Positions 13,676-47,243 of a DNA stretch of 64,000 nt are shown piece after piece. This DNA comes from Candidatus Dadabacteria bacterium (GTDB lineage Bacteria; Desulfobacterota_D; UBA1144; Nemesobacterales; CSP1-2). The position numbers and the translations under genes were made by a program. Under the pieces are notes generated by a model. That model ran no database searches and had not been told where the DNA came from. It saw nothing but the letters and a program-made list of their open reading frames with translations. The DNA lies in the NCBI GenBank assembly GCA_963805855.1, contig CAWDVW010000007.1:391457-455456 (forward strand), given 5' to 3'. Every line of letters begins with the position of its first letter. The stretch's first letter is position 1.

Positions 13676-14209
13676 TTATACATCTGTATGTCTGACTTGG
13701 TTTCTCCGTATATTGTCAAGAGCATTTTCTTCGATTTTAATTCTTCTTCGAATCAAAATCAAATTGACGATACTGAATAGTATTGACGTTAAATAACAGG
13801 AGAATATCAATGGGATGACCGCTATCTCCAATATGACTGCTATGTAATTTGGATGTTTAAGGTATTTATAGGGGCCCGTGCTTACGCGCTCGGAGCCTGG
13901 AACGACGAGGACCTTGGTATTCCAATACACCCCTAAGCTCGATATAGCCCAGTACCTGAGTATCTGGGCAATCAAAAAAATAAGCAGGAATACGAGCCAA
14001 AATTTGTTTAACTCCCTTTGAAGCGAAAATTTCTCGAGCACGAGAGAGATAAGAAAGGCAACGTGCGTGACCACAATGTACTTGTAACCATCTCTGTCGA
14101 ATTCGAGAGCCCCTTTTGATTTGACTATTTGCTCATTACGCTTTGCAAGACGTAGCTCTAGAAGGCGCTGTGAAACGAGAAGGGCGAGGAATATCCAAAA
14201 AAAGATCAT
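13676..14209 (-). CDS. ICMT-family (isoprenylcysteine carboxyl methyltransferase-like) integral-membrane methyltransferase, BpsB-like
   Basis: 177 aa, multi-TM, with a C-terminal region typical of ICMT/PEMT-family AdoMet methyltransferases. The start overlaps the type III PKS stop (ATGA). Confidence 0.7.
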   Translation of the reverse strand: MIFFWIFLALLVSQRLLELRLAKRNEQIVKSKGALEFDRDGYKYIVVTHVAFLISLVLEKFSLQRELNKFWLVFLLIFLIAQILRYWAISSLGVYWNTKVLVVPGSERVSTGPYKYLKHPNYIAVILEIAVIPLIFSCYLTSILFSIVNLILIRRRIKIEENALDNIRRNQVRHTDV

Positions 14210-15291
14210 ACAACCTGGAATAAAATTATTTCAGAGCTGAAGCCGGGACCCAGCGCTGAGATAAGACCATAATCGCCGGCGCCGTATTCGCCGCTATCGA
14301 GGAAATCTTTTAAAACATACAGTACAGTAGGTGAGGACATATTGCCATGATCGCGGAGTACGTTTCTGGAATGACCGAGTGCCCCGTCGGCAAGACCAAG
14401 AGATTCTTCATAGGAATTTATGACCTTAATCCCTCCAGGGTGAAAAACATAATGCTTGACATCATTAATCGAGAGGTCATACATTTCAAGTAGCTCTTCA
14501 ATATTCTCATGTACATATTTTCTCACAATTGTGGGGATGTCCTTACTGAAGATTGCCTTGAACCCCGCATCCACTATTTCCCAACCCATTACATCCAAAG
14601 AATCATAGTAAGTCGTAGTCAGGGAATGGATTAGCTTTATGCCTCCTAGTCCGTAAAGGCGGTGTTCGCATCCTGCCACCAGAGTAGCGGCGGCGCCATC
14701 GGAGAATAGAGCCATGGCAACTATATTACTTTTAGAGTAATCTTCCCTCAATATCGAAAGGCTGCAAATTTCCAGTGCGATCAGAAGAACCGCACTCCTC
14801 GGAAAAGCTGTTGTGTACTCCATAGCCCGACTCAGACCTACAGCCCCTCCTACGCAACCCAATCCCCAGACAGGTGATCGTTTCAGGTGAGGATCGAGTC
14901 TTAAGTTATTTATTATTATGGCATCTATGGAAGGGGTTGAAATGCCCGTACTCGATATATATATGATATGATCAAAATCCGACAGGTGGGCATCTATCTT
15001 GCCGATACACTTTCCGATGGCGTCTATTGATAAAGTAGAGGCATTCTTGACGTACTCCTCGTTTTTTTCAACAAAACTGTGAGCCTGAAAAAACCATTCC
15101 GGGGGCTGAGTGAAATGCCTGGATTCTATCATTGAGTTATCAAAAACTCTTATCATTTTATCTATATGATCGCGCTTATCGCTGAAAAGTTGATAGGTGA
15201 AATTCTTAATATCACTCTGAGAAAAGTGATATGGGACGTCAGCAAGTCCTACAGAAATCAGTTTCGGGTTACCCTCTGTCTTTGATAGCAA
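14206..15291 (-). CDS. Type III polyketide synthase (chalcone/stilbene synthase family, BpsA/alkylpyrone synthase-like)
   Basis: Catalytic Cys in GLGCVGG, plus FHPGG and GNMSS(P) motifs characteristic of the CHS-like thiolase fold. 361 aa. Confidence 0.85.
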   Translation of the reverse strand: MLSKTEGNPKLISVGLADVPYHFSQSDIKNFTYQLFSDKRDHIDKMIRVFDNSMIESRHFTQPPEWFFQAHSFVEKNEEYVKNASTLSIDAIGKCIGKIDAHLSDFDHIIYISSTGISTPSIDAIIINNLRLDPHLKRSPVWGLGCVGGAVGLSRAMEYTTAFPRSAVLLIALEICSLSILREDYSKSNIVAMALFSDGAAATLVAGCEHRLYGLGGIKLIHSLTTTYYDSLDVMGWEIVDAGFKAIFSKDIPTIVRKYVHENIEELLEMYDLSINDVKHYVFHPGGIKVINSYEESLGLADGALGHSRNVLRDHGNMSSPTVLYVLKDFLDSGEYGAGDYGLISALGPGFSSEIILFQVV

Positions 15292-36745: not shown

Positions 36746-38182
36746 TTACATATTCCGGGCCCGATCTAATGCTGATAAAGCGGCCTCCATGACTGCCTCT
36801 GAAAGAGTGGGATGAGCGTGTGGTGTCAATGCAATCTCCAGTGGAGTTGCCTCCAGGGTCTGTGCAACTCCGATTTCCGCAATGAGTTCTGTTGCGCCAT
36901 GACCAATAATATGGGTACCTATAATTTCACCCGTAATTGAATCTGATATTATCTTGACAAAACCATCAGTTTCACCCGTTGCAACTGCTTTCCCGGATGC
37001 TCTAAACGGGAACTTGCCAACTTTGATCTTGAGTCCTTTCTCCCTGGCTGCATCCTCCGTAATGCCGACGGATGCTATTTCTGGCTGGCAGTAAACACAG
37101 CTTGGTATCCTGTCATAACGGACCCTGTTTTCCTTCTGTCCAGATATCAACTCAACTGTGGTGATTCCCTCTTCTGAAGCCTTGTGAGCTAGGAGAGGTG
37201 GGCCAATCACATCGCCAATTGCGTACACATTGCTGCAGGTTGTTCTATAAGAGCCATCGGTCTTTATGAATCCCTGTTCATTAAGCTCTATATTCAAATC
37301 CTTGAGCCCTAGATCATCGGAGTCTTTATAATAGCTCAACGATGTCGGGGCGGTATTAGCTACAGCCTTCCGACCAACCGCGACCAGTAGCTTTGAAGCT
37401 TCGATTACCTTTAACTCTTTACTTGATATTTGTTCAACCGTTACATTAAGCGAATCCTTTAACCGTTTGTAACTATTATATTTACAGTTTATTAGGACCG
37501 TTATACCGGATTTCTTGAATACCCTTTCAAGCTCCGAAGCTACTTCAGAATCCGCCCCGGGAAGTAGATGACTTTCCATCTCAATAATTGTAACCTTACT
37601 GCCAAATGAATTATATACATAGGCGAATTCCGCACCTATATAACCTCCCCCTATGATGACAATCGATTTGGGAAAATCCTTTGACATGATTGCTTCATCA
37701 CTAGTGATTACCAGCTTCCCATCTATTTCGAGTCCGGGAAGCGTCTTAGGCACAGAACCTGTAGCTATCAGCACGTTCTCAGCCTCGATCTCATTCTGGT
37801 TCTTGTTGGTGATAATTCCTATTTTATTTCTCGTTATTAATTTACCCGTGCCCTGAAGGTGGGCGATTCCGTTTTTCTTGAAGAGAAATTCCACACCCTT
37901 ACTTAAAGTGGATGAGGCTTTTCGGCTTCTATCGATAACCTTTGAATAATCAAATGCAAGCCCCTCGACATTGATTCCATAGGAGTTAGACCTCTTAAAA
38001 TACTCATATATCTCGGCGCACTTGAGGATTGCTTTTGATGGAATGCATCCCCAGTTAAGACAGACTCCCCCAGGCTTATCCCTTTCAATAACGGCAACCT
38101 TCATTCCCAATTGCGCCGCGCGAATCGCCGCAAGATAACCGCCGGGACCCGATCCTATCACCGCTAAATTATATTTTTCCAT
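36746..38182 (-). CDS. lpdA: Dihydrolipoyl dehydrogenase (E3), copy 1
   Basis: FAD motif VIGSGPGGY, redox-active disulfide GGVCLNWGCIPSK, NAD motif IIGGGYIGAEFA and a C-terminal HAHPTLSE interface motif. Confidence 0.92.
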   Translation of the reverse strand: MEKYNLAVIGSGPGGYLAAIRAAQLGMKVAVIERDKPGGVCLNWGCIPSKAILKCAEIYEYFKRSNSYGINVEGLAFDYSKVIDRSRKASSTLSKGVEFLFKKNGIAHLQGTGKLITRNKIGIITNKNQNEIEAENVLIATGSVPKTLPGLEIDGKLVITSDEAIMSKDFPKSIVIIGGGYIGAEFAYVYNSFGSKVTIIEMESHLLPGADSEVASELERVFKKSGITVLINCKYNSYKRLKDSLNVTVEQISSKELKVIEASKLLVAVGRKAVANTAPTSLSYYKDSDDLGLKDLNIELNEQGFIKTDGSYRTTCSNVYAIGDVIGPPLLAHKASEEGITTVELISGQKENRVRYDRIPSCVYCQPEIASVGITEDAAREKGLKIKVGKFPFRASGKAVATGETDGFVKIISDSITGEIIGTHIIGHGATELIAEIGVAQTLEATPLEIALTPHAHPTLSEAVMEAALSALDRARNM

Positions 38183-42603: not shown

Positions 42604-44040
42604 ATGAGCGAGAGAGCAAAAAAAACTCAAATCGCGGTAATTGGAGGGGGTCCTGGGGGATACCCCGCTGCTTTCCTGGCTGCTGATCGTGGACTTAATG
42701 TCACTTTAATTGACAATGAAGCTAACCCGGGAGGAGTATGCCTTTACCGCGGGTGCATACCTTCCAAGGCACTGTTACATGCTGCAAGAGTGATAACTGA
42801 GGCAAAGGAGGCGTCAAACTGGGGGATCGGATTTTCGGAGCCGGTTATCGATATTGATAAACTTCGTAGTTGGAAGGATAACGTCATTAAAAAGATGACT
42901 GGCGGGCTCGGTCAGCTATCAAAGCATCGGAAGATCAACTACATACAGGGTCACGCTAAATTCTCGGACAAAAATACTATTGAAATACAGAATCAAAATG
43001 GAAGCGAATTATTAGGCTTTGAGTACGCAATCGTAGCTACCGGTTCACGCCCTGCAAATCTTCCCGATCTTTCAATCGATTCTCGGCGCATACTGGATTC
43101 CACAACCGGGTTGGAACTACCAGATGTTCCAAAGAATATGCTGATAGTGGGAGGAGGTTACATAGGGCTTGAGCTTGGAACCGTGTATGCGGCTCTTGGC
43201 ACGAAGGTCTCTGTTGTGGAAATGACATCGGGTTTAATGCCTGGTGTTGATCGGGATCTTGTCTTGATTCTCTCAAAGAGGTTAGAGAAGATTTTTGACT
43301 CCATCATGCTGGACACCAAAGTAGTCGATATGAGTGAAGAGAAATCTGGACTGAGGGTTAAATTTGAGGGCTCCAAGGTTAAAAGCAGCGAACAGATATT
43401 CGATAAGGTTCTGGTCTCGGTCGGGAGAAGGCCCAATTCCGAGAACCTGGGTCTGGAAAATACCCGCGTCAAAACCGATTCCAAAGGCTTCATCCAGGTT
43501 GACCAGCAGCGGAAGACTTCGGAACCCACGATATTTGCGATAGGGGATGTTGCGGGCGAGCCGATGCTGGCACACAAGGCAACGCATGAGGGTAGGGTAG
43601 CAGCAGAGGTGATCGCGGGAAACAACGTCGCTTTTGAACCCAATGCAATACCGGCGGTAGTATTTACAGACCCCGAGATAGCATGGTGCGGTTTGACCGA
43701 GACAAATGCAAAAATGGCAAATCGTCCGGTAAAAATTGCTCGGTTCCCTTGGGGAGCTTCCGGCAGGGCAACGACCCTGGATCGAAACGACGGAGTGACC
43801 AAGCTGATAGTAGACCCGGATACCGAACAGATCCTGGGGGTAGGTATTGTTGGAACAGGGGCCGGGGAATTGATCGCAGAGGGGGTATTAGCCATCGAAA
43901 TGGGAGCAAACGTGTCGGATCTCAAGTTGACAATACACCCTCATCCGACCCTTTCAGAGACAATTATGGAAGCAGCTGAGGTATTTTTCGGGGAAAGCAC
44001 CCATGTATATCGGCCGAAAAAATCAGCCGTTAGAAAGTAA
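42604..44040 (+). CDS. lpdA: Dihydrolipoyl dehydrogenase (E3), copy 2, in operon with aceEF
   Basis: VIGGGPGGY, GGVCLYRGCIPSK, VGGGYIGLELG and HPHPTLSE. Confidence 0.92.
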   Translation: MSERAKKTQIAVIGGGPGGYPAAFLAADRGLNVTLIDNEANPGGVCLYRGCIPSKALLHAARVITEAKEASNWGIGFSEPVIDIDKLRSWKDNVIKKMTGGLGQLSKHRKINYIQGHAKFSDKNTIEIQNQNGSELLGFEYAIVATGSRPANLPDLSIDSRRILDSTTGLELPDVPKNMLIVGGGYIGLELGTVYAALGTKVSVVEMTSGLMPGVDRDLVLILSKRLEKIFDSIMLDTKVVDMSEEKSGLRVKFEGSKVKSSEQIFDKVLVSVGRRPNSENLGLENTRVKTDSKGFIQVDQQRKTSEPTIFAIGDVAGEPMLAHKATHEGRVAAEVIAGNNVAFEPNAIPAVVFTDPEIAWCGLTETNAKMANRPVKIARFPWGASGRATTLDRNDGVTKLIVDPDTEQILGVGIVGTGAGELIAEGVLAIEMGANVSDLKLTIHPHPTLSETIMEAAEVFFGESTHVYRPKKSAVRK

Positions 44041-44086: not shown

Positions 44087-44992
44087 TTATGAGTAAGAAT
44101 TAATAAAACTCACAACCTCATTTACCATCACCTCAGGGTTCTCCATACAGTCGTGTCTTGCATTCGGAACAACTCTCAATCTTATGTTTTTATTCCCCGC
44201 CTTTTTCGCTATTTTTACGAGCTCGTCAACCTCCCACTGATCCACGATGAAATCATTTTCACCCCTCAAGAAAAGGATTGGTATTTTGATTTTAGGAATA
44301 TGTTTATGTGCCATAGCACCGCACGCGTGCGGCCCCATCATAAACCACCATGTCTTATAGGTGAAAATTTCGTTATTTTTGGGCTCGGGCGTCGGGCCTC
44401 TAGCTCTATAAACAACAAATATCTCGTCCCGCTTACTCTTGTGGGGATCGTCTCCCAGGACACATTTTGCGCTTTCGAATATTTCCTCATATGTCGGTGA
44501 TCCTCCCCACTTTTCCAAACGGGCCCTCTGTGCTTCAGACGTTGAATAATGAATTCCTTCCAATACGATTCCCCTCACGTTGTGAGGCCTTCTATTTGCT
44601 GTCCAATAAGCAAGCATACTTGCTCCCAGACTATAACCAAGGATATAGATATTATTAAATCCAGTGTCATTGAGAAACTTAAGCGCGGCATCGATATCCA
44701 TCAGAGTGTCATCGAAGATCCCCTTTCCAGTAAACTGTCCGGCGAAAGCAAGCCTGGTGTTTAAAGACATAGAACCAAATCCTCGCTCGAGCAGGGCATG
44801 GGGCAGGAGGCGAGGAGTTCCCCTTGCCAGAAAGTGACCCAACAAGCCATGAATTTGGAGTAAAATCGGACTGTCAAGGATTTCCTCTATTTTAACGTAA
44901 TCCTTGGTGACCAATAGGCTGCTGAGAAAATTCCCATCCGAGGCTCGAAGCCTTATCAATCTCTGTTTTTCGCGGACTCTTGACTCAGTCAT
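44087..44992 (-). CDS. Alpha/beta-hydrolase fold protein (canonical GxSxG: GYSLG), paralog A
   Basis: 301 aa. Nucleophile elbow ILGYSLGASM, with downstream Asp (ENDFIVD) and His (NARHDC). Confidence 0.7.
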   Translation of the reverse strand: MTESRVREKQRLIRLRASDGNFLSSLLVTKDYVKIEEILDSPILLQIHGLLGHFLARGTPRLLPHALLERGFGSMSLNTRLAFAGQFTGKGIFDDTLMDIDAALKFLNDTGFNNIYILGYSLGASMLAYWTANRRPHNVRGIVLEGIHYSTSEAQRARLEKWGGSPTYEEIFESAKCVLGDDPHKSKRDEIFVVYRARGPTPEPKNNEIFTYKTWWFMMGPHACGAMAHKHIPKIKIPILFLRGENDFIVDQWEVDELVKIAKKAGNKNIRLRVVPNARHDCMENPEVMVNEVVSFINSYS

Positions 44993-45031
44993 ATTCCTGC
45001 TTTACCAGGAGCTTAGTTGATGCCTTGATAT

Positions 45032-45946
45032 TTAGAACCTTTCGCCTAACCATTCAATAATTGCTTGCGCCAGTTCCTCATGCTTTCCGTCAAATGAATG
45101 GTTAGCATCGATATTCACATGTGTCACATCTTTATTGCCGCTACGCTTCGCTATTTCGCAAAGGTCCTCAGATTCTCGACCCTCGATTATTTCGTCCTTC
45201 GACGCATGAATTAAAAGTATAGGTGTATGTTTAACATTTCCAACCTGTTTATAAGCCTTAGCGCCTTCAGCCTCCGGGCCGGCAAGAGCCCACCACGTTT
45301 TCAACGTGTAAATCTCGGTATGTTCGGGGAGGCTTGTAGGTCCATGAGCCTTTTTTACTATTATGGTCTCGTCATGGACGCGCTCTTTTTTGTCATCGGG
45401 ATAGAAGGTTCTTCGTACCCTTTCATAAACCTCGTCGTAACTTGGTTGGCTCCCAAAACGTTCCCATCTCCTGCGAGTAGTATCAGGCATTGAAAATGGG
45501 GTCGCAATCGCTATTGCCCCGCTTAAATCGGGATATCTTTCGATGTCGTTTCTAAGCGCGCAGTATCTCAATGCAATACATCCTCCAAGTCCGTGACCTG
45601 CAATGATAATTTTCTTGTAACCAACCTTTCTAAGATATTCGCAGACAGCATCAATTTGGGGAATAGCGTCATCGAATATTCCAAAACCAAAAAAAAGTCC
45701 TAGATTTGCAAGAAGTGTGTTCATCGTAACAGAGGAGAAATCGTTATCAGCAAGTCTGCTTGGGAGGTAGTGTTCTGTCTCATCCAGGAGGTTTCCAAGG
45801 ATCCCGTGAAGACGAACAATCACAGGTTTATGCTCCCGGTGATTTGAATGAGTATCTATATGGTAATGAACGGCGTCAATCTTATGAGAATTAAATGGTA
45901 TCGATATAATCGTGCCTGAGTATTCTTCCATGTCGTTAAAATTCAC
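45032..45946 (-). CDS. Alpha/beta-hydrolase fold paralog B with the nucleophilic Ser replaced by Gly (GHGLGG)
   Basis: 304 aa, collinear with paralog A (LHGILGNLL.. versus IHGLLGHFL..; ..TWW..GP.. conserved). The elbow reads IIAGHGLGGCIA. Asp (SKDEII) and His (DANHSFDG) are retained. Confidence 0.65.
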   Translation of the reverse strand: MNFNDMEEYSGTIISIPFNSHKIDAVHYHIDTHSNHREHKPVIVRLHGILGNLLDETEHYLPSRLADNDFSSVTMNTLLANLGLFFGFGIFDDAIPQIDAVCEYLRKVGYKKIIIAGHGLGGCIALRYCALRNDIERYPDLSGAIAIATPFSMPDTTRRRWERFGSQPSYDEVYERVRRTFYPDDKKERVHDETIIVKKAHGPTSLPEHTEIYTLKTWWALAGPEAEGAKAYKQVGNVKHTPILLIHASKDEIIEGRESEDLCEIAKRSGNKDVTHVNIDANHSFDGKHEELAQAIIEWLGERF

Positions 45947-45967: not shown

Positions 45968-46732
45968 TTATGCTTTTCCATAAACGGGAATACCGGCACC
46001 GCTTATAGGCTTTGAATCATCCGAAGAGAGAAAGACTATAACCCTCGCAATCTCTTCGGGTTTTACCCATTTTGAAAAATCAGCCTCAGGCATATCCCTT
46101 CTGTTTGCAGGGGTATCGATGGTGCTTGGAAGCACAGCATTCACATTTATCTCATAATCCTTTGTCTCGTCTGCGATTGTTTCCGTCAGGTTCAAAACCC
46201 CGGCCTTTGAAGCGGAGTAGGCACCCACTCCGGCCGAGCCTTTCAGGGCCGGCCGTGAGGATATATTGATTATTTTCCCATAATTTTGCTCAATCATCCG
46301 CGGGAGTACATATTTCGAGCATATAAAAGCAGATTTTAAATTTAAACTCATCATAAGATCCCAGGTTTTCTCATCCGTGTCCTTTATATAGGAGAAAGCA
46401 AAGCCGCCCACAACATTAACAAGGATATCGACCCTTTTAAATTTCCTAGTAGTATTTGTAATCATGTTGAATACATCCTTCTTCTTTGTAACATCAGCTT
46501 TAATAAAAACAATTTTGTCTTTATGCTCACTAGTCAATGAGAGACATTCTTTTTTCTCTTTATCAACAATATAAGTACAAACTACCTTCGCACCCTCTTC
46601 AAGAAACGCTATGGTGATCGCCTTTCCCAGCGCACCTGTGCCGCCGGTTACGATTGCTATTTTATTTTTAAGAGTATTCATTGGTCTCTCCTTAAGCTGT
46701 TCGGGTTTTCCCGGCAAATTCAATGATTTCAA
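45968..46732 (-). CDS. SDR-family oxidoreductase
   Basis: TGGTGALG Rossmann motif, NVVG and a YSASK catalytic Tyr-x3-Lys. Confidence 0.85.
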   Translation of the reverse strand: MKSLNLPGKPEQLKERPMNTLKNKIAIVTGGTGALGKAITIAFLEEGAKVVCTYIVDKEKKECLSLTSEHKDKIVFIKADVTKKKDVFNMITNTTRKFKRVDILVNVVGGFAFSYIKDTDEKTWDLMMSLNLKSAFICSKYVLPRMIEQNYGKIINISSRPALKGSAGVGAYSASKAGVLNLTETIADETKDYEINVNAVLPSTIDTPANRRDMPEADFSKWVKPEEIARVIVFLSSDDSKPISGAGIPVYGKA

Positions 46733-46907: not shown

Positions 46908-47243
46908 ATGGATATTCTCATTTCAATGAAGGCAGAAACGATTCAGAAAGGACTATATATGAATTGCAACATAATGCAGATGCCAACCGCTCAAGCAAAA
47001 CCCTACTTTATTATGGAGCTCCGAGAAGATAATGAGGTTAAGCTTAAACTTATCAAACAATATGCTCAAATTCTTCAAGAAAAATTTGATGAAGATGAGG
47101 AGTTTTTGATCGAGCACACAAATATCGGGATCATACTTAAGAAAAGGGTTGATGAAGGCGTGGAATACATGGAAGCGTGGGATAATTGGGTTCTGTTTTC
47201 GAGGAAAGTTTATGAAGAACTGGCGGAAATAGTGGGAGAATAA
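46908..47243 (+). CDS. Hypothetical protein (111 aa)
   Basis: Open frame between convergent and divergent neighbours. No recognisable motif and only a weak SD. Confidence 0.35.
   Translation: MDILISMKAETIQKGLYMNCNIMQMPTAQAKPYFIMELREDNEVKLKLIKQYAQILQEKFDEDEEFLIEHTNIGIILKKRVDEGVEYMEAWDNWVLFSRKVYEELAEIVGE

Follow-up and report, generated by a model that had tools for sequence, protein, structure and literature searches.

Active-site residues and fold of the two paralogs

The window, a 64,000-nucleotide stretch of contig CAWDVW010000007.1, carries two adjacent genes on its minus strand that encode alpha/beta-hydrolase paralogs, here called A (44087..44992, 301 residues) and B (45032..45946, 304 residues; both ranges are open reading frames (ORFs) including the stop codon). 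B is transcribed before A, and the two genes are separated by a spacer of 39 nt (44993..45031, minus strand). The B frame starts at GTG, and an alternative ATG start at residue 6 is possible. An earlier sequence-only reading of this DNA had proposed tandem alpha/beta-hydrolase paralogs at these positions, and the proposal held: the ORFs were exact, both were on the minus strand, and the two proteins could be aligned collinearly (BLASTP, 34% identity over 262 residues, E = 1e-51). Both proteins also exceeded the 27-bit cut-off of the Pfam family Hydrolase_4 (47.3 bits for A and 36.8 bits for B) and passed the curated cut-off of Abhydrolase_1.

The two paralogs differ at the position of the catalytic nucleophile. 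A contains IYILGYSLGASML, in which Ser121 (codon AGT, 44630..44632) is the nucleophile of the elbow motif GYSLG. B contains IIIAGHGLGGCIA, and its elbow reads GHGLG with Gly119 (codon GGA, 45590..45592) at the predicted nucleophile position; in the BLASTP alignment, Ser121 of A was aligned with Gly119 of B. The other two members of the triad in A are Asp247 (codon GAT, 44252..44254), which follows strand beta7, and His280 (codon CAC, 44153..44155), which belongs to an invariant HDC motif. Both residues are invariant in family A, as is the HG motif of the oxyanion hole (H48 and G49). In A and B alike, the acid lies behind beta7, the histidine behind beta8, and the HG motif behind beta3. B has kept the corresponding residues: the oxyanion-hole HG motif (His47-Gly48, 45803..45808), Asp251 at the canonical acid position (codon GAC, 45194..45196), and His283 at the canonical histidine position (codon CAT, 45098..45100), all of which are invariant (all codons given here are on the minus strand). 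The elbow nucleophile of this fold is Ser, Cys or Asp in a Sm-X-Nu-X-Sm pattern, to which A conforms with Ser121 and B, with Gly119, does not. A is presumed to be the active esterase or thioesterase subunit.

The AlphaFold (AF2) monomer predictions drew on 50 to 51 orthologs, and the models had a predicted local distance difference test (pLDDT) score of 83 and a predicted template modelling (pTM) score of 0.86 for B, and 86 and 0.88, respectively, for A. In the B model, Gly119 lies between strand 113-118 and helix 120-131, that is, at the nucleophile elbow, while the strands preceding Asp251 and His283 span residues 243-248 and 274-279, respectively. The canonical strand-helix order of alpha/beta-hydrolases with the sharp beta5-alphaC turn was present. 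In addition, HMMER alignments showed that the catalytic serines of the solved esterases 7dq9 (GHSMGG) and Est1E (2wtm; GHSQGG) fall on Gly119 of B. Because Gly119 is at the modelled elbow and the serines of the solved esterases are aligned to it, the nucleophile position does not lie elsewhere in the chain, an objection that the sequence-only reading had raised against itself. The glycine which it had placed at the serine position of B, with the candidate Asp and His kept, is borne out by both the alignment and the model, and the elbow that it had left to structure prediction is found at the strand-helix turn.

Among the 47 invariant residues of B, 17 are located in two loops beside the active site (residues 45-62 and 74-91), which correspond to approximately 45814-45761 and 45727-45674 of the window (minus strand) and have equivalents in A. 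The most conserved segments of both A and B are also those for which the models are least confident (pLDDT ~50). At the level of the models this is suggestive of, and would be consistent with, loops that take on a fixed structure only within a complex or upon ligand binding.

Fixation of glycine and selection on B

All 120 listed orthologs of B possess Gly at the nucleophile position, and the elbow motif is GHGLG in 113 of them; the lack of Ser in orthologs, which the sequence-only reading had named as a check, was confirmed by this result. Likewise, all 120 listed orthologs of A possess Ser. Across the genome loci, the Gly of B is encoded by GGA, GGG, GGT, and GGC, with all four codons in use. 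The Ser codon in the A orthologs is AGC or AGT only, and hence a single A-to-G transition explains the original change from Ser to Gly.

The ratio of nonsynonymous to synonymous substitution rates (dN/dS), calculated between the window and a 92%-identical relative (L005), was 0.139 for B, 0.169 for A, and 0.085 for a short-chain dehydrogenase/reductase (SDR) gene preceding the pair. The mean column identity was 64% for B and 66% for A, indicating that B is as conserved as A. Approximately 15% of the columns of B are invariant, and the HG motif, Asp251, and His283 are among them. B has lost its nucleophile, and the loss has been both fixed and conserved. The combination by which a pseudoenzyme is recognised in sequence, namely the loss of a catalytic residue that is fixed in orthologs together with purifying selection, is found in B, and we infer that B lacks catalysis.

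Conservation of the B-then-A gene pair

When 185,579 species genomes were scanned for the pattern of the B alignment, 26 loci were obtained, which came from metagenome-assembled genomes (MAGs) labelled Thermodesulfobacteriota/Desulfobacterota, Nitrospirota, Methylomirabilis, Binatia, Planctomycetia, Syntrophales, and others. In every genome locus with enough sequence (~22 loci), A was located downstream of B on the same strand with a spacer of ~15-60 nt. Conversely, taking A in metagenome contigs as the starting point, we inspected the gene directly upstream, which was of the B type in 66 of the 70 testable loci. The identity of this cassette across phyla is about 55-65%. On one Nitrospirales chromosome (L026, 5998-6549), B is reduced to a 183-residue remnant and A is absent; we regarded this case as A and B decaying together and counted it for the partnership. 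These results show that the pairing of the two genes is obligate.

A third alpha/beta-hydrolase gene (256-258 residues) is present directly upstream of B in two MAGs, of an uncultured bacterium (L021, 5217-5987) and of a Planctomycetia (L022, 5231-6007). It is separated from B by a 16-nt gap in the former and overlaps B by 10 nt in the latter, forming a three-hydrolase cluster.

In the window, the pair is preceded by the SDR gene mentioned above (45968..46681, minus strand, 237 residues), whose likely start is the ATG at 46681 with AAGGAG before it. The order of transcription on the minus strand is SDR, a 21-nt gap, B, a 39-nt gap, and A, and no terminator-like site was found between the three genes. 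The SDR resembles FabG and has both the Rossmann motif and YxxxK intact, and its Pfam adh_short score (174.5 bits) makes it a member of the SDR superfamily; its score with the NCBIfam equivalog NF004201 for FabG 3-oxoacyl-acyl carrier protein (ACP) reductase (229.2) is below the cut-off of 288. The sequence-only reading had described the two hydrolase genes as lying upstream of the SDR gene. Given the order on the minus strand, the relation is the reverse: the SDR gene is the first gene, 5' of B and A. The three-gene operon which that reading had suggested is retained in part. The genes are co-oriented with short gaps, and the SDR gene is probably the lineage-specific first gene of an SDR-B-A operon in the window, outside the conserved cassette. 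An SDR gene is found upstream of B, however, only in the window and in two close relatives, L005 (93% identity) and L006 (75% identity), and a general SDR-B-A operon is therefore rejected. Clustering of all flanking ORFs in the genome loci of the B scan revealed no other recurrent neighbour of the pair, and with the metagenome loci included, no further gene family was shared beside it among the lineages. The flanking genes inspected at other loci were unrelated to one another; in L005, for example, they encode an acid phosphatase and a response regulator.

A sister lineage with serine in both paralogs

The upstream partners of A in the metagenome loci included 26 with the elbow GHG[LIV]G and 27 with the elbow GYSLG, and the HG motif, Asp, and His were kept in all 53. 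A database search with a Ser-type B partner listed 120 relatives, all of which possess Ser and are named Candidatus Dadabacteria, Deltaproteobacteria, or Thermodesulfobacteriota by their sources. The B protein of the window is 49% identical to the Ser-type B partner, as compared to 34% for its own neighbour A. We constructed a neighbour-joining tree of A, B, and their relatives with 200 bootstraps. A and B each formed a clade (bootstrap values of 99% and 80%, respectively), as did the Gly-type and the Ser-type B proteins (98% each). The A partners of the Gly-type B proteins were likewise grouped (98%), and the A partners of the Ser-type B proteins were grouped with the solo A genes (85%). The mirrored trees of A and B, along with the existence of a Ser/Ser sister pair, led us to conclude that the pair is older than the loss of the nucleophile, that A and B have co-diverged, and that Ser changed to Gly once. 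Co-inheritance and congruent phylogenies, as looked for in a heteromeric enzyme of active and inactive subunits, are both observed here.

Nine differences are fixed between the Ser-type and Gly-type B proteins: Q11G, H45R, F53L, Q58E, F82L, S116A, Y118H, S119G, and Y215L. Family A shares the residue of the Ser-type B proteins at F53, Y118, S119, and Y215, and this agreement means that four residues of the ancestral site common to A and B were lost together in the Gly-type B proteins. The divergence was asymmetric: the A partners of the two types of B differ by only two fixed substitutions (M81L and Y130W), with GYSLG, Asp, and HDC kept. No new conserved Ser or Cys was found in the Gly-type clade as compared to the Ser-type clade, so that a switch of nucleophile in B, another suggestion of the sequence-only reading, is unsupported. 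Ser152 and Cys123 of B were considered as replacement nucleophiles and rejected, both being common to the Ser-bearing relatives.

In the Ser/Ser lineage, which is Dadabacteria-like, a gene for a 449-residue protein is located directly upstream of the pair (L103, 668-2017; also in L072, L073, L081, L089, L091, L094, L096, and L104-L110). In this protein, an N-terminal glycogen-binding module (CBM48/AMPK) is combined with an esterase domain of the S9/DLH type, and universal stress protein (Usp) genes are found nearby. These neighbours are uninformative for the Gly clade.

Fused two-domain relatives

An exhaustive profile search over 1.84 billion representatives found few close relatives (33 matches at E <= 1e-30). 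The same search found many proteins of 560-640 residues with two matching stretches, in which both halves are alpha/beta-hydrolase domains. The elbows of the two halves are GYRLG and GYSLG in P0243, GHGQG (with Asp and His also lost) and GYSLG in P0246, and GHSLG and GYSLG in P0244. In more distant fusions, Gly, Glu, Asp, or Gln occupies the nucleophile position, and the half concerned can be the N-terminal or the C-terminal one. The fused proteins (P0243, P0244, P0246, P0275, P0283, P0326, and P0373, the last being WP_336951514.1 of Sphingobium) resemble A and B in the signatures NTR.AN.G and TWW..GP.A, present in both halves, and also in that one half often lacks Ser. Unlike A and B, their halves are in one chain and belong to a separate clade, and they vary in which residue replaces Ser and in whether Asp and His are kept. 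The fusions do show that members of this family habitually function as a pair of joined domains, and that one of the two can do without its nucleophile. P0243-P0385 form a large unnamed set of such two-half proteins, with Ser replaced by Gly, Arg, Glu, Asp, or Gln in either half.

Proposed role of B and alternative explanations

We propose with moderate confidence that B is the non-nucleophilic partner of an active esterase or thioesterase, A, in a heterodimer. The proposal is based on the obligate co-inheritance, the mirrored phylogeny, the asymmetric divergence, the fused relatives, and the strong purifying selection on B. The sequence-only reading had offered a pseudoenzyme or partner subunit as one explanation of B, and this fits the conserved cassette, the mirrored trees, and the two-domain fusions. 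An ancient tandem duplication would have produced A and B, which would have been inherited together since then as the B-then-A cassette. Both copies would at first have possessed the Ser-Asp-His triad, a state that survives in the sister lineage. In the ancestry of the clade to which the window belongs, B lost its nucleophile once (Ser to Gly), the substitutions F53L, Y118H, and Y215L occurred at the same time, and A remained essentially unchanged. B can no longer form an acyl-enzyme, and purifying selection may have kept it because of its work with A. Most likely, B would be the half without catalysis in a cytoplasmic esterase or thioesterase that A and B make up as a heterodimer. Its contribution might be to folding and stability, or to substrate binding via the still well-conserved pocket. 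We infer both the physical association of A with B and the esterase activity of A. No signal peptide was evident in A or B, as judged from their N-termini. For the lineage of the window alone, the presence of a FabG-like SDR points tentatively to a substrate of the hydroxy- or oxo-acyl ester type.

Several observations weigh against this proposal. The coevolution signal between A and B amounts to one clade-level event. The remaining four of the 70 testable metagenome loci hold a solo A-type gene, and in the Nitrospirota bin371 (L001/L025) an intact B lies beside an A that is cut to <=192 residues (L001, 10948-11526). The closest fusions form their own clade (66% support), may have arisen from an independent duplication, and were placed relative to A and B with supports of 34% and 53% in another tree; owing to their own clade and possibly independent origin, their Rosetta-stone support for an A-B association is only indirect. 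The Ser-less half of some fused relatives has also lost the HG, Asp, and His residues that B keeps. In B, the HG motif, Asp251, and His283 are invariant, and such residues are not obviously needed by a purely structural subunit. Their invariance raises the possibility that the pocket of B still performs chemistry or binds a ligand.

One explanation along this line, which we consider unlikely, is that B is still an enzyme without a covalent nucleophile, in which the His-Asp dyad and the oxyanion hole activate water or stabilise an enolate. The activity could be decarboxylase-, lyase-, or isomerase-like, with B acting in sequence with A (and here also with the SDR) on the same metabolite. The invariance of HG, Asp251, and His283 in a protein with only ~15% of invariant columns, and their presence in 53 of 53 upstream partners, would be in line with such chemistry, and with a residue as small as Gly the elbow has space for a water molecule or a substrate. 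Nucleophile-free enzymes of the alpha/beta fold exist, such as tomato MKS1, and a co-oriented FabG-like SDR gene lies 21 nt upstream in the window. The link to the SDR is, however, limited to one lineage. Moreover, two Tyr and one Phe common to A and the Ser-type B proteins were lost together with Ser, which resembles dismantling rather than re-tooling, and no new conserved polar or catalytic residue appeared except for Q58E and Y118H. No similarity of B to a known nucleophile-free family was found in Pfam, NCBIfam, or the solved structures.

A composite of the two ideas, which we regard as rather improbable, is a two-site A-B machine in which the His-Asp/oxyanion pocket of B performs a nucleophile-free second step or gates the entry of substrate to the serine of A. 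The second step could be decarboxylation, water-mediated hydrolysis, or acyl hand-over. If this were true, A and B would constitute a previously undescribed two-site heterodimeric alpha/beta-hydrolase that is widespread in Nitrospirota, Thermodesulfobacteriota, NC10, and Binatia, and the natural Ser/Ser and Gly/Ser versions would document its origin.

We see little chance that B is instead a ligand-binding sensor or regulator, whose old pocket binds a small molecule or an acyl carrier and thereby controls or targets A. B would then resemble the non-catalytic or slow-turnover receptors of the alpha/beta fold; its pocket motifs have been kept despite the loss of the nucleophile, and the conserved loops flanking the site are modelled with low confidence. 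No regulatory domain and no conserved regulator gene were found nearby, however, and on the present data a sensor cannot be separated from a non-nucleophilic partner.

The chance appears similarly small that A and B are functionally independent tandem paralogs, with an adjacency that is merely historical and a B that is slowly decaying or moonlighting. Tandem paralogs are common, solo A-type genes exist, and one MAG combines an intact B with a truncated A. Nevertheless, the adjacency and the order of the genes are kept in ~88 loci over several phyla while the surroundings change, and a dN/dS of 0.14 for B, an identity of ~60% across phyla, and the mirrored trees are all at odds with independence.

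An error of sequencing or assembly, or a strain-specific inactivating mutation, is a negligible explanation for the Gly, having nothing in its favour beyond the fact that a single residue is concerned: Gly is present in the 120 listed orthologs and in 26 further metagenome loci, the use of four Gly codons together with the Gly of the orthologs excludes a sequencing error, and the codon in the window is GGA, which needs two base changes to encode Ser, and not the GGC that the sequence-only reading had thought resequencing might restore to AGC.

The two genes form a strongly conserved, uncharacterised cassette, which is carried by mostly uncultured bacteria of environmental importance, among them Nitrospirota, Thermodesulfobacteriota, Methylomirabilis, and Binatia. 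The Ser/Ser pair of the Dadabacteria-like lineage and the Gly/Ser pair of the lineage of the window provide a natural experiment on the origin of a pseudoenzyme. The accompanying substitutions are exactly known and the catalytic partner is almost unchanged, which makes the pair a good experimental system. The results also bear on annotation: the names 'pimeloyl-ACP methyl ester carboxylesterase' and 'alpha/beta hydrolase' are attached to B orthologs that cannot act as serine hydrolases.

Surroundings of the pair in the window

The cluster is flanked by the convergent genes for the E1, E2, and E3 components of pyruvate dehydrogenase on one side and by ileS on the other. A second dihydrolipoamide-dehydrogenase-like flavoprotein (Pyr_redox_2 and Pyr_redox_dim) is encoded at 36746-38182 (minus strand), divergent from and just upstream of aceE; it is separate from lpdA at 42604-44040. 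Between the SDR gene and ileS, there is a 111-residue ORF (46908-47243, plus strand) with no match to Pfam or PADLOC models, and L006 has a comparable gap of ~900 nt at the same place. Farther away, a gene for a type III polyketide synthase (chalcone/stilbene-synthase-like; 14206-15291, minus strand) is found amid housekeeping genes (metH, hemB, purK, pyruvate carboxylase, pepA, and sppA).

Family assignment and comparison with known systems

A and B could not be assigned to any of the characterised families examined. For BioH, the pimeloyl-ACP methyl ester esterase, A scored 15.6 bits as compared to the cut-off of 206.95 (NCBIfam TIGR01738), and B gave no match. The name 'pimeloyl-ACP methyl ester carboxylesterase', which many orthologs bear in the Joint Genome Institute (JGI) data, is a generic COG label. 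For MenH, the 2-succinyl-6-hydroxy-2,4-cyclohexadiene-1-carboxylate (SHCHC) synthase, A scored 30.9 (cut-off 208.55, TIGR03695) and 31.3 (cut-off 261, NF008340), and B scored 13.0 and 17.0, respectively. Scores for the intracellular short-chain polyhydroxyalkanoate (PHA) depolymerase (NF050089), EstD, and lysophospholipase L2 were likewise far below the NCBIfam cut-offs. No PADLOC model of anti-phage defence was matched by A or B.

No close solved structure was found, the best profile match having an E-value of ~1e-6. The nearest structures are Hydrolase_4-type esterases and monoacylglycerol lipases (Est1E 2wtm, LJ0536 3pf8, Pf2001 5g59, PET46 8b4u, and 7qjm/7qjn), which show only 13-21% identity and sequence E-values in the Protein Data Bank (PDB) no better than ~1e-3 to 1e-6. 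All of them are single-gene, Ser-bearing enzymes, and none is known to form an active/inactive pair. A full-text literature search likewise found no description of a bacterial pair of active and Ser-less alpha/beta-hydrolases of this kind.

Methylketone synthase MKS1 of tomato is a nucleophile-free enzyme of the alpha/beta fold with Ala-His-Asn in place of the triad, and it acts after a thioesterase. It resembles B in having a small residue at the elbow and in keeping the histidine, but it possesses Asn where B keeps Asp, and no sequence similarity between the two was detected.

Non-catalytic proteins of the alpha/beta-hydrolase fold in which the nucleophile is replaced include the neuroligins (Gly), DPP10 (Gly), DPP6 (Asp), and ABHD5/CGI-58 (Asn). 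These proteins are similar to B in that the fold is the same, the loss of the elbow nucleophile is conserved, and the protein is kept for a non-hydrolytic role. DPP10 is also described as an inactive peptidase in one published article (PMC4350108). Unlike B, these proteins are eukaryotic and have unrelated partners (ion channels, neurexins, or a patatin lipase), and their genes do not neighbour that of an active paralog, whereas the partner proposed for B is its sister paralog, encoded with it in a bacterial two-gene cassette. Beyond the fold, no sequence relationship between B and these proteins was detected.

Plant EDS1-PAD4 and EDS1-SAG101 are heterodimers of lipase-like alpha/beta-hydrolase paralogs, and SAG101 has no triad. 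They differ from A and B in being eukaryotic immune regulators with an extra EP domain, for which catalysis is dispensable in all partners, and the homology is confined to the fold. They are nevertheless like the A-B heterodimer that we propose from indirect evidence, in that both partners are paralogs of the alpha/beta-hydrolase fold and one of them is without a complete triad. The partnership suggested here does not by itself overturn anything, as catalytically dead paralogs are already familiar as partners of active enzymes.

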